From a virus (lineage: Duplodnaviria > Caudoviricetes), in the IMG/VR virus record IMGVR_UViG_3300025288_000061, positions 1 to 33,676 of that record: DNA of 33,676 nucleotides; one strand, written 5' to 3'. Shown one piece after another: positions 3,635 through 21,166 of this stretch. A model generated the notes under the pieces. That model saw only the letters and a list, made by a program, of their open reading frames with translations, did not search any database and had not been told where the DNA came from. Made by a program: the position numbers and the translations under genes. Numbering within the stretch: the first letter of the stretch is position 1; every line of letters starts with the position of its first letter.

Positions 3635-4456
3635 TCATGTAAAGCACCCTGCGTGATGACATCGGTCTTCTAACGCAGGACGCATCAAATCAAAAAGGTC
3701 TGGCATATCGAAGTTTTTCTTTAATTCCCTTAAATTACCTTGCCCCAGACCAGAGCCGCCGCGTCCTAAATTGCCATTATTTCGAGCGTTTTCCTCTATT
3801 ACACAAGCTTTCTCATATAAATCAGGATGATTTTCATACATACTTTTCCATTCGTGAACTCTCATATTTGGACACATAAAGCAAGATGATTTCCCGATAT
3901 TCAGCCCTTCCGATTTGCAAATATTATTGCATTCCTCGCGACCTATACCCCAAGCAACTAATGGATACCACGCGGTAAAATTAGGCACATCACCTCTCTT
4001 ACATGCGGAAGTAATACGTCCAGACTCGTCAGCGTCATAACCGACGGCAAACGATCCTTCTTGAAATCTGTTGGTTTTTCTCCATCTGTCCATCGGCTGA
4101 ATTTTCCATTTCGAGGTGCATCCTGCTAGGCCGTATGCTTTGGATGGCAAGTGGCCAGTTCTTAAACAATTTTCATGAAGCGGCTCAAATCCAATAACTT
4201 CTCCTTTAACCCGCTCCCAACGGACAACTGTTATATCTTGCCAGCCTTTGCACCATGTCGTCATCCGATCAACGTGCTCAAGAGTCCACGGCATTTCGGA
4301 ACCAGTGTCGGCAAAAAGAATCCAGTCTGGTTTTAATCCTCGCTTTCTGCACTCAATAATCATAGTTGTCGAATTAATACCGCCCCCGAAATTTATACCC
4401 CATTTTTTTGTTGGTGGAGTTTTACTCATGCCCAATTTTAAAAATTTCTCACTCAT
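3635..4456 (-). CDS. PAPS-reductase-like (PP-loop adenine nucleotide alpha hydrolase) protein
   Basis: NFGGGINST PP-loop, FADTGSE, CTSKWKIQP, VGYDADE, WYPL, KSSCFMCP. Confidence 0.85.
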   Translation of the reverse strand: MSEKFLKLGMSKTPPTKKWGINFGGGINSTTMIIECRKRGLKPDWILFADTGSEMPWTLEHVDRMTTWCKGWQDITVVRWERVKGEVIGFEPLHENCLRTGHLPSKAYGLAGCTSKWKIQPMDRWRKTNRFQEGSFAVGYDADESGRITSACKRGDVPNFTAWYPLVAWGIGREECNNICKSEGLNIGKSSCFMCPNMRVHEWKSMYENHPDLYEKACVIEENARNNGNLGRGGSGLGQGNLRELKKNFDMPDLFDLMRPALEDRCHHAGCFT

Positions 4457-5903: not shown

Positions 5904-6620
5904 TTACTTAACCTCAGTTAAAAGACCTTTAACATACTTCCTACAAAGCTCAACTCTATCAGCGATGGCATCAAAGCAAGATTCATCACGCTCAAATTCA
6001 AATGTTTTTATGCGATATTTCAATGGTACATCGTTATAATTTATGGCATGTCTGTCGATCTCTTTGGGAGTCGTCACAAGCACATAATCAAGACAGGCGC
6101 GAGGTTTATTTGCTATTATCATGTACCCTTGAAGCTGCCACCAATAACCAACGTCAGGCACTTCATTTTCAAAAAGAGGGAAGGTGTTTTGATCCCAACT
6201 GCATTTAATGTCTCTAGCGTAAATGGTGTTCAAGATATCAGGCGTTCCGATGATATACTCACTTTCAAAAGTCGATTGATTCTTTTCGTACTCTATGCCG
6301 TAATATTCAGAAACTAGACTAATGGCCTCATCCTCACATTCTAGGCCCTTCTCTACATATTTATTGTGAAGTTGTGGCCTAGTACCGTAGAGTTGCTCCT
6401 TGACCCATTGTTTGCAATATGATTTTGCACCTTGTGGCAACTCTGAATTATCACGAGCCCATATGGCTTTTGCGTATTCAATTTTCATGTTGTCAGTCAT
6501 GGGCTTGTCACGCGCCTCAAGCTCTGCAATCTTGGCAAGTTGGGACTGTGAAGCCCCAACATTACCAGCCATGATGTCAGCAATCGCGCTGCACCTTATT
6601 TTGAAAGGCTTAATTTTCAC
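5904..6620 (-). CDS. YqaJ/lambda-exonuclease-like PD-(D/E)XK nuclease
   Basis: RCSAIADIM, KGLECEDEAI, GTPD...DIKCSW, YWWQLQGYM; adjacent to the annealase. Confidence 0.85.
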   Translation of the reverse strand: MKIKPFKIRCSAIADIMAGNVGASQSQLAKIAELEARDKPMTDNMKIEYAKAIWARDNSELPQGAKSYCKQWVKEQLYGTRPQLHNKYVEKGLECEDEAISLVSEYYGIEYEKNQSTFESEYIIGTPDILNTIYARDIKCSWDQNTFPLFENEVPDVGYWWQLQGYMIIANKPRACLDYVLVTTPKEIDRHAINYNDVPLKYRIKTFEFERDESCFDAIADRVELCRKYVKGLLTEVK

Positions 6621-7375
6621 GCTTGCACCTCGCCATCAATTGACTTTTGGATTTTGCGCCATTCTTCCTTTAATCGCACATAACTGATTGTTTTAGCCTC
6701 AATTTCAGCAATCAAGCCGCCATCAAGTTCGACTTCATGCTCTGCACACTTTGCAAGAAAGCCGTCAATTTGCTCCTGAGTAGCTGGCGCTTCTGTCAAA
6801 ACTGGAGCCTCAACTTGTGTTTGTGGCTTTTCAATCACAGTCGCATAGACAGCCTTTTCTTCGGGATAGTCCATAGCCTCTTCACGACTGATTAAGCCTT
6901 GAAGCACGTCTGGAAACATATCGCGCAAAGCAAAGCCACGAGCACGAAACTGCAACATGCGCTCTGGATATTGAGACCAAGGGCCTTGTTTGCCCCAAAG
7001 CTTTGCAACCTTTGCTTGGTCAACACTGAATGTGGTCACTTGCTCAGGTTGACCTCTCCTCTTGGTTTTGCATACCGCTGTCATGTTAGATTTATCAAAT
7101 TCTTCAACTACATACTCACAGTGCTCGGAATTGCGCACTAGAGCAAGCATGGCATCACCGTAGATTGACGGCTTACCATTGATGACCGCAATGTTTTGAA
7201 GAGCTTGAAGCGGCTTTAAACCTAGCTCAAGCCCCCATTGTATACCAACAAAAATGTCCTCGGGCTTGCCTTGATAAGCGGTTGGCACCATCTTCGTTTT
7301 TGCGATCATTTGCGAAAATTTATGCAAATCTTCAAAAGACTTGGGCGCTACTGCGAGCGCTAATTTATTACTCAT
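6617..7375 (-). CDS. recT: RecT-like single-strand annealing protein
   Basis: VPTAYQGKP, GLELGLKPLQALQNIAVINGKPSIYGD, WSQYPERMLQFRARGFALRDMFPDVLQG; SD AAGGAG. Confidence 0.85.
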   Translation of the reverse strand: MSNKLALAVAPKSFEDLHKFSQMIAKTKMVPTAYQGKPEDIFVGIQWGLELGLKPLQALQNIAVINGKPSIYGDAMLALVRNSEHCEYVVEEFDKSNMTAVCKTKRRGQPEQVTTFSVDQAKVAKLWGKQGPWSQYPERMLQFRARGFALRDMFPDVLQGLISREEAMDYPEEKAVYATVIEKPQTQVEAPVLTEAPATQEQIDGFLAKCAEHEVELDGGLIAEIEAKTISYVRLKEEWRKIQKSIDGEVQA

Positions 7376-17441: not shown

Positions 17442-18689
17442 ATGAAATTATGGCCATTCGGTAAAAACATCAAAGCCTCGATAGGCGAGTTCATCTACAC
17501 GATGAAGCATAGTTTTAGTTCTGATAATTTCGACGCATACGCAAAAGAGGGCTATGCCTGTAATCCAACCGTTTTTGCTTGCATTGATTTAGTTGCGAAG
17601 TCGATGGCGGCCATACCGCTAAAAGTGAAAGTTAGAGGCGAGTATGTTGAGGGTCACCCACTTGAAAAGCTTTTGAAACAACCCAATCCAGATGAAGGAG
17701 GTGTTGAATTTCGCATTGCGGCTGCGTCTTGGTATCTCATCACAGGCAATTGCTTCACTCAAAAACTCATGCAAGGGAAAACTCCAACGCAGCTCTTAAA
17801 CTGGCAGCCATACAATTGGAGTATAATGCGCAATACTGGCAACCCTTTACCTTTGCGTTATATCTTCGGGAAAGGCCAAACTTTTGAGAAAAACTTTGAA
17901 GTTGATATTTTCACTGGCAAAAGCGAGATCATGCATTGGAGATCATTCAATCCATCACGTGAAAGTAGCGAGTTTGGGCAAGCACCGCTAAAAGCCGCAG
18001 CTTCAAGTGTAGACAGCGCAAACGCATCGAGGCTATGGAACTATAGCACTACACAAAACAGCGGCAGCGCATCAATTCTAGTTACGACTGAACAAGAAGT
18101 TACACCAAAGCAACAACAACAACTAGAGCAAAGCTTAGTTGAAAAATGGATGGGTCCGAAGAACGCAAATAAAATTAAAGTAATGGGTTCAGCGTCTAAA
18201 GTTCAAGTGATCTCGATGACGCCCAAGGACATGGAATGGCTAAATGGATTAAAGCTAAATGCGCAAGAAATATGCTCTGTATTCAAAACGCCAACTCAAC
18301 TTTTGGGAATCGAAGGTTCACAAACTTATGCAAACTTTGCCGAGGCGCGTGTTGCTATGGCAGTTATGGCGACTATGCCTTTGCTGACTCTATACGTTTC
18401 GGAGCTAAATAGATTTTTAGCCTCGGATTTTGGACCAGATGTTGAAATATACTTTGATAAGAACGACGTTGACGCATTAGAACCGTTAAGACGTGAAGCT
18501 AGAGCCGAAAAACTTGCGACAAGTGTCTTAACAATCAATGAAAAACGCGCTGTAATCGGATATGAGAGAATTGAAGAAGAGGATGCCGACTCCCTATTTG
18601 TATCACCACAAGATATACCGCTTGGCCTCAATATGTATGAAAGTGACATGAACGACCAAGGGCAAGGCAAGAGTGTACAAAAGAAATAA
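17442..18689 (+). CDS. Portal protein, HK97 family
   Basis: NPTVFACIDLVA, HPLEKLLKQPNP, G+APL, EICSVFKTP, TYANFAEAR, LTINEKRAVIGY. Confidence 0.95.
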   Translation: MKLWPFGKNIKASIGEFIYTMKHSFSSDNFDAYAKEGYACNPTVFACIDLVAKSMAAIPLKVKVRGEYVEGHPLEKLLKQPNPDEGGVEFRIAAASWYLITGNCFTQKLMQGKTPTQLLNWQPYNWSIMRNTGNPLPLRYIFGKGQTFEKNFEVDIFTGKSEIMHWRSFNPSRESSEFGQAPLKAAASSVDSANASRLWNYSTTQNSGSASILVTTEQEVTPKQQQQLEQSLVEKWMGPKNANKIKVMGSASKVQVISMTPKDMEWLNGLKLNAQEICSVFKTPTQLLGIEGSQTYANFAEARVAMAVMATMPLLTLYVSELNRFLASDFGPDVEIYFDKNDVDALEPLRREARAEKLATSVLTINEKRAVIGYERIEEEDADSLFVSPQDIPLGLNMYESDMNDQGQGKSVQKK

Positions 18690-20491
18690 TGGCACTCGCA
18701 AAGACAAAGCGCGAGAAGCTACAAGAAGCAGCAAGACAGCTTAGACAGCGCGCCATCTTAGAGCGTTGGCTCATGCCACGCATGAGAAGAGAACTAAGGC
18801 TGATGGCGACTGATGCGGCTACAGGATATACCGAGGGCGGGATGGAGAGAGCACTTGTAACTATTGACTCTCATAAAATCGCAATTGAAGGATTGCTGAA
18901 TACATTTTATGAAAAGGTCATCACTAAGACAAGTGAAGGTCTAAAAGCTTGGCTTCCGACAATCGAGAAGAAAGACTTTTTTGGCGCTGTAGACAGGCTC
19001 ATAAACTACTTTCGCGGCACAGCATTAAGCAACTCTGTCTCAATCGCTGAGACAACAAAAGATGAAGTCAGGCAGATCATGGAGCCGATGATTGCCAACT
19101 TTGAAACCGAAGGAACTATCGCCAAAGCGATTGAAAGCAAACTCAAAAAACAATCGCGCTCAAGAGCTCAGATGATAGCGCGGACGGAATCGGGTATTGC
19201 AGTCAGCAAGAGCCAATTCGATTTAGTTCAAGAGGTCGAGACTTTGCCGATGAAGAAAGAGTGGGTCACAACGTTTAGGGACTCAAGAGACTCACACAAA
19301 GATATTGACGGCACTAAAATAGAAAAGCATGAAGCATTTAAGGTGAGACGTCAAAACGGTGGCTATGATCAGATGCAGCATCCGCACGACAGAGCGGCAA
19401 GCGCTGGGAATATATACAACTGCCTGCATCCATCAACCGTTATCGGGCTTTGCCATCCTAATAAACTCTTCAGAAGGCATTATGTCGGTGAAATAATCGA
19501 GATTGAAATAAGTTCTGAACATAAACTCACCGTTACCCCTAACCATCCTATACTGACCAAGCTTGGATGGAAGAGTGCAAGGCTCATTAATGAAGGTGAT
19601 GAGCTGATCGTAGACGCTGTCAGAGATGGTATCAATTCCGTGAACGTTGATATAGAAGCACCGAAAGCCACAGTAGGCGAGATGTACGATTCTTTTTTGA
19701 AGAATCGGTATCTTCCAAGCGTCACCAGTGGAATTGTGGATTTCCACGGCGACGCCACCAATCCCGACGTCGATATTATAAGCGTAGACAGGGAGTTGAT
19801 GAACAGCATCAAGCCCACGTTTGAGACACCCATCGAGAAAGGACTTCTCCAGTTTTCCGAAACGAGCAGAGTTTGCTTGATGGACGAAAGCGCGATGGAC
19901 GAGTTCATGTTCAGATCGCTTCTTTCCTCGAACTGCGTCGTGAGCGGCTTTGGTGATTTTCTTGATGTAGTCAGGGCTTGCCTTGCTAAATCTGATCCTC
20001 ATGGCCTCGCTGCCAGTTCTGGGCTTGAGTCCGAGCTTTTTCATGCAAAAGCTTATTGTATTTCTCTCGCATCCAAGGACTTTCGACATTTTAAGAACGG
20101 AATCGCCCTTGATGTAGAGATATTCGACTTTATCAATAACGAGCTCCCAAGGCTTTTTTCTGATCTCAGCGCCAACACTCTTGAGCCCAGCATATACGGT
20201 GCAATTAGATATTCCTATGAGTTTAGCTATCTCGAAAGACTTTTTCCCAGACTCATAAAGTTGTTTGATTCTTTCATCTCTTTTAGATTTTTGAGTAAAA
20301 GGCTCTCCGTTGACGTCGTGACCAAGATTAGTACTCATGAATATGATGGGCCTGTTTATAATATTGAAGATACCAAGTCATTCTATAGCGCATCTACAAT
20401 AATTAATCATAATTGCATGTGTGTAATGATATTCGTACCTGCTTTCGACGTTGGAGATTTTGACGAAGAGGCGGCTTATGCTGACGACTAA
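18689..20491 (+). CDS. MuF/SPP1 gp7-like minor head protein, intein-containing precursor (269 aa after splicing)
   Basis: RAQMIARTE, KKEWVT...RDSH, HPHD...GNIYN|CMC motif rebuilt once residues 245-575 are removed; follows the portal. Confidence 0.9.
   Translation: MALAKTKREKLQEAARQLRQRAILERWLMPRMRRELRLMATDAATGYTEGGMERALVTIDSHKIAIEGLLNTFYEKVITKTSEGLKAWLPTIEKKDFFGAVDRLINYFRGTALSNSVSIAETTKDEVRQIMEPMIANFETEGTIAKAIESKLKKQSRSRAQMIARTESGIAVSKSQFDLVQEVETLPMKKEWVTTFRDSRDSHKDIDGTKIEKHEAFKVRRQNGGYDQMQHPHDRAASAGNIYNCLHPSTVIGLCHPNKLFRRHYVGEIIEIEISSEHKLTVTPNHPILTKLGWKSARLINEGDELIVDAVRDGINSVNVDIEAPKATVGEMYDSFLKNRYLPSVTSGIVDFHGDATNPDVDIISVDRELMNSIKPTFETPIEKGLLQFSETSRVCLMDESAMDEFMFRSLLSSNCVVSGFGDFLDVVRACLAKSDPHGLAASSGLESELFHAKAYCISLASKDFRHFKNGIALDVEIFDFINNELPRLFSDLSANTLEPSIYGAIRYSYEFSYLERLFPRLIKLFDSFISFRFLSKRLSVDVVTKISTHEYDGPVYNIEDTKSFYSASTIINHNCMCVMIFVPAFDVGDFDEEAAYADD
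19421..20413 (+). mobile_element. Intein (331 aa) inserted in the MuF N-C-x-C motif
   Basis: Block A CLHPSTVI, block B LTVTPNHPILT (TxxH), GWKSA..I.EGDEL, block F YDGPVYNIE, block G IINHN followed by +1 Cys. Confidence 0.92.
19433..20338 (-). CDS. Antisense-encoded putative homing endonuclease (HTH-HTH, NUMOD3-like linker, Vsr/DUF559-like nuclease) nested in the intein
   Basis: 301-aa ATG-started ORF; LYESGKKSFEIAKLIGISNCTV and LYIKGDSVLKMSKVLGCERNTI tandem HTHs; RGKKRSEHE; LEKSF...HQLPVYAYNIDVGIGGVAVEIH...RIVHLAYCGFRCFYI. Confidence 0.8.
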   Translation of the reverse strand: MSTNLGHDVNGEPFTQKSKRDERIKQLYESGKKSFEIAKLIGISNCTVYAGLKSVGAEIRKKPWELVIDKVEYLYIKGDSVLKMSKVLGCERNTISFCMKKLGLKPRTGSEAMRIRFSKASPDYIKKITKAAHDAVRGKKRSEHELVHRAFVHQANSARFGKLEKSFLDGCLKRGLDAVHQLPVYAYNIDVGIGGVAVEIHNSTGDAWKIPILQKRIVHLAYCGFRCFYINVHGIDTISDSVYDQLITFINEPCTLPSKLGQYRMVRGNGEFMFRTYFNLDYFTDIMPSEEFIRMAKPDNG

Positions 20492-21166
20492 ATGAGCAAC
20501 GTACCACCTAGCAAAAGAGAACAGCATCTGGCAAAGTCTGGCGTTGAGCTAAAGTCAGACGATACGCAGCTTGACGTTGCCGCATGGCGAGAAGCACAGG
20601 CAACAAAGCTAGATAGTATAGAAGCGCTGATTATAGCCACAAATGCAGCCTTGGCAGGTACGCTCATAGCACGCTCATCAACTCATGAAAATGTCCATTT
20701 AGGCAAAACGTTCTTAGCTTTCCACAATTCATCATCACTAGCAAATGGCTCTAACATCAATATTTTTTTTGAGACGAGTGCCACCACAAGCGCTGCACCT
20801 CACATCGTCATTGATGCAAGCGGCAGCTTGGCGTTTCAGTTTGAGGTCTTAGAAGGGCCAACAGTTACGAGCGGAACTGGAACGAGTCAATCTGTTTTTA
20901 ATAAAAATCGTCAGTCGGCAACAACGTCTTTAGTCTATGACAACGCTTCAACACCTGTTCAAAATAAAATGTCTATTGATGTTACTGTGACGGCTGATGG
21001 TACGGTGATAAGTGACGATTATCTACCAACAGGCAAAAGCTCTGGTGGTATATTAGACTTTGGGCGAGAGTTGATTTTGAAAGCCTCAACTAAATACGTG
21101 TTTAGACTCACATCGTTAGAAAATAATAACATTTGCCACATCAATTTAGACTGGTATGAACCTTAA
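20492..21166 (+). CDS. Hypothetical beta-rich protein, probably virion-associated
   Basis: S/T/G-rich, lies inside the head module. Confidence 0.6.
   Translation: MSNVPPSKREQHLAKSGVELKSDDTQLDVAAWREAQATKLDSIEALIIATNAALAGTLIARSSTHENVHLGKTFLAFHNSSSLANGSNINIFFETSATTSAAPHIVIDASGSLAFQFEVLEGPTVTSGTGTSQSVFNKNRQSATTSLVYDNASTPVQNKMSIDVTVTADGTVISDDYLPTGKSSGGILDFGRELILKASTKYVFRLTSLENNNICHINLDWYEP

Follow-up and report, generated by a model that had tools for sequence, protein, structure and literature searches.

In the window, by which we mean the whole 33,676-nucleotide stretch of DNA analyzed here, the MuF-like head morphogenesis gene carries an intein of which about 900 bp are read on both strands, and the product of the antisense frame, judging from its structural model, is likely to act as a homing endonuclease of the Vsr-like kind. 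This double coding is genuine, with selection acting on both strands, and the layout itself is already described. The locus represents a clean natural case in which selection switches strands along a single element.

The MuF intein and the frame opposite to it

The window is a tailed-phage contig in which the genes on the plus strand follow the order terminase, portal, MuF, prohead protease, capsid, connector, tail, and tape-measure, with MuF placed between the portal and the prohead protease/capsid genes (Table 1); the metagenome runs that best contain it are labelled groundwater or aquifer. The MuF open reading frame scores 30.5 bits with Phage_Mu_F (cut-off, 29.6) and matches phrog_15127 with an E value of 2e-54. 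Its product comprises a 244-aa N-extein, the 331-aa intein, and a 25-aa C-extein.

Table 1. Location of the features considered in the window
Feature	Position	Strand	Basis or remark
Phosphoadenosine phosphosulfate reductase family gene	3635-4456	-	phrog_424, E 1e-33
RecT-like annealing protein and exonuclease pair	5904-7375	-	could support homing repair
MuF-like head morphogenesis gene, 600-aa precursor	18689..20491	+	ORF list; Phage_Mu_F and phrog_15127 matches
Class-1 intein, 331 aa	19421..20413	+	C1, TPNH, VYN, HN; Cys+1 at 20414-20416
Intein block B, TPNH	19535..19546	+	overlapped by 3' part of antisense ORF
Intein block F, VYNI	20354..20365	+	motif; no preceding His, Ile in place of Leu
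Predicted homing endonuclease ORF, 301 aa, ATG to TGA	19433..20338	-	codon-aligned with sense intein
Two HTH modules (residues about 17-54 and 63-102)	20033..20290	-	profile matches and model
Family motif AHDAVRG (residues 132-138, helical linker)	19925..19945	-	conservation
Vsr/DUF559-like nuclease core (residues 159-255)	19574..19864	-	E164, Q181, D190, E199; K209
Candidate antisense -10 hexamer, block G	20406..20411	-	5/6 match
224-aa gene between MuF and prohead protease	20492-21166	+	phrog_5335

A preliminary description of this DNA had proposed that the MuF frame reads through a complete intein, and the motifs, the Pfam Intein_splicing match (39.1 bits; cut-off, 35.8), and the intein-free alleles agree on this point. 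The features of a class-1 intein are all present, namely, C1 (encoded at 19421), a block B TxxH (TPNH, residues 39 to 42), a block F (VYN, residues 312 to 314), the terminal HN ending at 20413, the following Cys+1, and a Hint fold; the insertion is in frame, at a site (N|CxC) that is empty in homologues. In particular, three intein-free relatives (P0019, P0020, and P0021) align to the MuF protein of the window leaving a 331-residue gap at N|C, and since the gap in the alignment with the 269-aa P0019, which is 70% identical, corresponds exactly to the intein, the boundaries of the latter are fixed. Moreover, H42 is invariant across 75 inteins. In the AlphaFold model obtained with these 75 inteins, a Hint domain is predicted with confidence from the two ends of the intein (pLDDT of 92 to 98 for residues 1 to 60 and of 84 to 98 for residues 291 to 331), with inteins and Hint domains as best structural matches (Z of 13.7, rmsd of 2.6, 111 aligned residues). 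The center is modeled with low confidence (pLDDT of 32 to 65 for residues 121 to 290) and returns only generic helix matches at a Z of about 5, in line with the expectation of a poorly structured sense insert devoid of an endonuclease fold.

On the minus strand, the 301-aa ORF was found inside the intein as originally reported, and the codon boundaries of the two strands coincide, because sense CAT at 20336-20338 (intein codon 306) and sense TCA at 19433-19435 (intein codon 5) are both in frame and provide the antisense ATG and TGA, respectively. The 3' part of the ORF extends over the splicing region of blocks A and B, covering the TPNH codons. Such a long open frame is not expected by chance: TTA, CTA, and TCA account for 6.2% of the 4,444 codons of 12 other window genes, so that a frame of 301 codons would be free of stops with a probability of about 4e-9, or of about 2e-14 once the 32 Leu and 32 Ser residues of the sense protein are given. 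The antisense frame in phase with those 12 genes stays open for at most 98 codons, and 10 antisense stops occur in the N-extein of MuF itself (244 codons).

Dual-coding family and selection on the two strands

A tblastn search with the antisense protein matched 119 of 50,697 phage records. The best phage matches were in the Gordonia phages Vivi2, Fosterous, Affeca, and Angelicage, under MuF-like genes (34 to 36%), and homologues occur in phages of Salmonella, Escherichia, Klebsiella, Pseudomonas, Vibrio, Aggregatibacter, and others; cultured carriers of the element include Gordonia phages and the Escherichia phage Snoke. In the annotated records inspected that have the nuclease inside MuF, only the sense gene is listed, which means that annotation pipelines miss the nuclease. 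We gathered loci from 24 of the 119 phage records, the best 80 of 166 viral matches, all 12 genome matches, the best 80 of 123 metagenome matches, and 3 more, which together with the window gave 200 loci, 142 of them distinct (the copy of the window included). The opposite codon-aligned frame is stop-free across the nuclease match in 139 of the 142 distinct loci, a fraction to be read considering that the loci were collected by nuclease similarity, most of them via the AHDAVRG word, which favors intact nuclease frames; the other two antisense phases of the same loci contain 2 to 48 stops. It had been asked at the outset whether both frames stay open in homologues, and they do with three exceptions: L024, where the nuclease is free-standing, L122, and L175, where the stop lies outside the intein.

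Parsing of the two intein ends succeeded in 128 of the 142 loci, the remaining 14 being cut off or unparsed, and after dropping L122 and the mis-parsed L193, 126 inteins were grouped at 70% identity in 109 clusters. C1, the terminal Asn, and Cys+1 are conserved in all 109 clusters and TxxH in 107; all 109 occupy an N|CxC-like site of the MuF/minor-capsid type. Our small MuF profile did not match about half of the exteins, which were assigned through motif and position alone.

Some members deserve separate mention. Two intein size classes, of about 270 and about 320 aa, pair with one- or two-HTH nucleases (L013, L016, L020 to L023, and L026, among others), and five inteins (L051, L054, L099, L140, and L189) are longer, with 347 to 416 aa and extra sequence. 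The member L114 lies on a Bathyarchaeia MAG contig, where the C-terminal intein end was not detected. In L122, a TGA at intein codon 21 breaks the sense frame and leaves the nuclease frame intact; a sequencing error, a pseudogene, recoding, or an incipient split intein are candidate explanations.

The dN/dS ratios, calculated by the Nei-Gojobori method and pooled over 21 independent pairs sharing no sequence, showed that the sense center evolves almost neutrally (0.92 and 0.80) and that purifying selection acts there on the antisense frame (0.27 and 0.39), as predicted at the outset. In the splicing ends (first 60 plus last 30 codons), the reverse was found, with 0.25 and 0.21 for the sense frame and 0.87 and 1.03 for the antisense frame. 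It follows from this reversal that the nuclease tail lying over blocks A and B is mostly a passenger there. Most of the differences in the center affect sense position 1, which corresponds to the wobble position of the antisense codons. The comparison of the window with L029, its nearest DNA relative, gives the same picture, with center identities of 54% antisense versus 40% sense and end identities of 57 to 60% sense versus 27 to 42% antisense. Codon-aligned antisense frames do mirror the conservation of the sense frame, and this could in principle make the minus ORF a mere shadow of a conserved sense protein; nevertheless, selection in the center runs the opposite way, and it is the minus product that has a confident nuclease-like fold whereas the sense center does not, so that this explanation was rejected and we assign it a practically negligible probability.

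Antisense protein and its putative start signals

The AlphaFold model of the antisense protein, built with 15 antisense proteins (pLDDT of 81), contains two HTHs, a helical linker, and an alpha/beta core. The HTHs are supported by HTH_Cbp1 (E of 2e-9, below its own cut-off) and by a profile match to 2LVS (E of 2e-8). When the core was searched against 48,161 chains, the top three matches were 1CW0 (Vsr; Z of 9.3, rmsd of 3.1, 109 aligned residues), 3HRL (Z of 8.8), and 3R3P (I-Bth0305I; Z of 8.2), Z values of 8 to 9 that exceed the typical best of the background only slightly. Furthermore, the family profile matches 3HRL (E of 1e-6) and 3R3P (E of 0.0019), and 10 of the 15 family members, the window protein not among them, match Pfam REase_MTES_1575. 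The core is detectable only through family profile and fold: Foldseek alone gave no match at an E value of ≤0.001 for the model, and the single minus protein returned from Pfam, NCBIfam, and PHROGs only HTH matches and weak HNH-labelled PHROG matches in its N-terminal part. Thus, profiles and fold model, with Z values of up to 9.3, agree with the proposal of two HTHs followed by a Vsr/DUF559-like core. For the 'NUMOD3-like' basic stretch, no NUMOD family was returned by any of the three databases. The AHDAVRG motif of the linker is invariant in 15 of 15 proteins collected without the motif as a filter; its conservation in later loci is circular, because those were collected using it.

Concerning the catalytic residues, E164, Q181, D190, E199, and R216 are conserved in the family and kept in the window protein, E164 being present in 106 and D190 in all of the 110 family members. 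His213 and Asp222 of I-Bth0305I, reported as sites of inactivating mutations (PMC3239194), correspond to K209 and L213 in the window, and at the Asp222 position there is no conserved Asp anywhere in the family. A His 4 to 14 residues after E199 occurs in 86 of the 110 members and is absent from the window nuclease. Therefore, of the EDxHD assignment made originally, E164, D190, and the HTH/Vsr-like domain order stand and the His213/Asp222 equivalents do not, and the protein, likely a homing endonuclease of the Vsr-like type, falls short of full EDxHD membership.

The codons of the C-terminal end of the intein suggest how this protein may be expressed. Block F was located in 106 of 109 clusters; the residue preceding it is His in 85, coded by CAT in 77 (extein background, 0.40), and its Leu is coded by CTC in 77 of 97 (background, 0.23). 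Read on the opposite strand, the HVYNL of most relatives corresponds to a GGAGG-type ribosome site and an ATG. Compared with synonymous shuffles, Shine-Dalgarno words occur in 77 clusters versus 19 to 23 expected, a -10 box matching at least 5/6 in 78 versus 22 to 31, and a -10 box placed over the Ile-Ile of block G in 36 versus 12 to 14; the clusters are related, and the counts are not independent events. We are inclined to believe, with some reserve, that the catalytic end of the intein is at the same time an expression cassette for the nuclease, in which the block G Ile-Ile codons provide the antisense -10 box and the HVYNL codons of block F the GGAGG and ATG. If so, a single 100-bp stretch would serve splicing on one strand and the start of transcription and translation on the other, which would account for the founding of a family across many host phyla by a single antisense capture and for the ability of the nuclease to leave the intein as a free-standing gene with only relics of the start signals, as in the Acinetobacter phage P1068.

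The copy of the window is atypical, with no antisense Shine-Dalgarno sequence and an ATG 5 codons further in. In addition to the -10 candidate in block G, a second 5/6 candidate is present at 20358-20363; a matching -35 was found for neither. A sigma-70 scan of positions 19200 to 20900 returned 6 sites versus 3.0 ± 1.6 in shuffles, and the best minus-strand site (20657-20630) was discarded as a promoter, being indistinguishable from chance.

Since the ribosome site and the His213/Asp222 equivalents are missing, the nuclease activity of this particular copy is uncertain. One could suppose that the family homes and that, in the window and a small clade around it (L029, P0004, and P0005), the nuclease is dead or weakened, kept as a DNA-binding protein or decaying slowly. 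The K209 in place of His213 and the absent Shine-Dalgarno sequence point in this direction; however, the five conserved residues listed above are retained, the ORF is uninterrupted and, in the comparison with L029, shows higher conservation than the sense frame, and P0004 is full length at 83%. Furthermore, many ordinary window genes also lack a clear Shine-Dalgarno sequence (19 starts inspected) and 24 of the 110 family members, including the Jerseyvirus-type L013, also lack the His. We regard a dead or weakened copy as unlikely, though deserving consideration. In the reading with the expression cassette, the ribosome site and the general-base His were lost in the clade of the window, and this clade may rely on a different catalytic arrangement.

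Probable mobility of the element and relation to known systems

In our opinion, it is highly probable that this is a mobile MuF intein, whose plus frame self-splices and whose minus-strand HTH-HTH-Vsr-like protein cuts intein-free MuF genes, spreading the element. The sense intein is predicted to excise itself from the 600-aa precursor, yielding proteins of 269 and 331 aa, and its center would be a tolerated passenger loop removed through splicing. The nuclease would be transcribed from an antisense promoter, in most relatives within the block G codons, and translated from the ribosome site and ATG in block F; it would then cleave near the N|CxC codons of the intein-free allele, and the cut would be repaired from the intein-bearing allele, possibly with the aid of the phage RecT-like and exonuclease genes. 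Expression of the nuclease from its own strand may, as the preliminary description proposed, decouple homing from late MuF expression.

We infer homing of the MuF intein from sequence comparisons. In Jerseyvirus-type phages, the extein was matched in 482 records and the intein in 72, a patchy occurrence to which the three intein-free alleles of the window's MuF also belong. A screen of extein versus intein identity gave only 2 discordant pairs, one per direction, and does not show recent homing; at the DNA level, no close intein-free allele was found in IMG/VR, and contigs from four DNA runs, two of them possibly the source of the window, showed no intein-skipping joint and no variants. The Gordonia phages Keitabear (L019) and Angelicage (L014) have near-identical N-exteins with clearly different inteins of the family at the same site, which suggests independent invasions or replacement.

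In the Acinetobacter phage P1068, the nuclease is a gene of its own (L024:1063-1956), convergent with the 3' end of a MuF gene that has no intein and whose site reads PM|CKC; the same protein is present in IME285 and BUCT629, and L200 is listed together with L024 as free-standing. Upstream of this nuclease, an antisense stretch resembles, by eye, broken blocks F and G; a block F/G profile gave no score on it. The protein groups with the intein-borne nucleases of Vibrio, Aggregatibacter, and Klebsiella phages in a quick, midpoint-rooted tree, which alone cannot orient the free-standing form; the simpler interpretation is that it arose when the intein was lost. Such a member beside an intein-free MuF gene, together with the two HTHs, would also suit an antisense protein that serves the phage, either as a regulator or as a nuclease against host or competitor DNA, and that the intein merely shelters. 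We consider this improbable, given the strict tie to a single insertion site in very divergent MuF genes, the presence or absence of the element varying among close phages, and the domain order shared with I-Bth0305I.

With regard to known systems, I-Bth0305I (PMC3239194) and the window protein share the N-terminal HTH/NUMOD pair and the C-terminal Vsr-like core, and the E and the first D (Asp196) of its EDxHD motif align with E164 and D190; I-Bth0305I, however, is intron encoded on the same strand as its host gene, whereas the window nuclease is antisense in an intein. A system reported in 2009 (PMC2677866) likewise combines an intein and a separately translated Vsr-like nuclease in one locus but has a split intein and three nonoverlapping coding regions on the same strand. 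A cyanobacterial dnaX intein with a homing endonuclease encoded out of frame, for which a dN/dS analysis is reported (bioRxiv 10.64898/2026.09.14.751524), resembles the window in that purifying selection acts on an overlapping nuclease frame and the intein frame is relaxed; it differs in the LAGLIDADG-type nuclease, the +2 frame, and the bacterial dnaX host. A hidden out-of-frame HNH within a phage methylase has also been described (PMC11855218).

The preliminary description knew of no standard account of this layout, but one is already available: Gosselin, Arsenault, and Gogarten (bioRxiv 10.1101/2025.01.02.630785) describe full inteins with an antisense VSR-like endonuclease in actinobacteriophages, report that minor capsid inteins carry only noncanonical endonucleases, and cite antisense LAGLIDADG inteins back to 1998. 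In our search of the literature, from which subscription journals and bioRxiv supplements were excluded, nothing was found on start signals of antisense homing endonucleases in phage inteins; the main text of the preprint does not mention promoter, ribosome, start codon, or synonymous, and its sections considered here contain neither block F/G codons as antisense start signals nor breadth beyond actinophages nor the free-standing Acinetobacter form. The inteins of that preprint and the window have in common the contiguous intein, the sense center without recognizable structure, the antisense VSR-like nuclease, and the long helical N-terminal part. Their nuclease matches 1CW0 (Z of 10.6, residues 144 to 267) and 3R3P, as does the core in the window, and their host genes include the minor capsid gene, MuF being the host in the window. 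Different from the preprint, which concerns actinophages only, the family of the window reaches far beyond them. Since the layout is in print, the value of the present analysis lies in its extensions, that is, the breadth of the family, the switch of dN/dS between the strands, the antisense start signals embedded in the intein, and the form that stands free of it, the last two being the parts most worth following.
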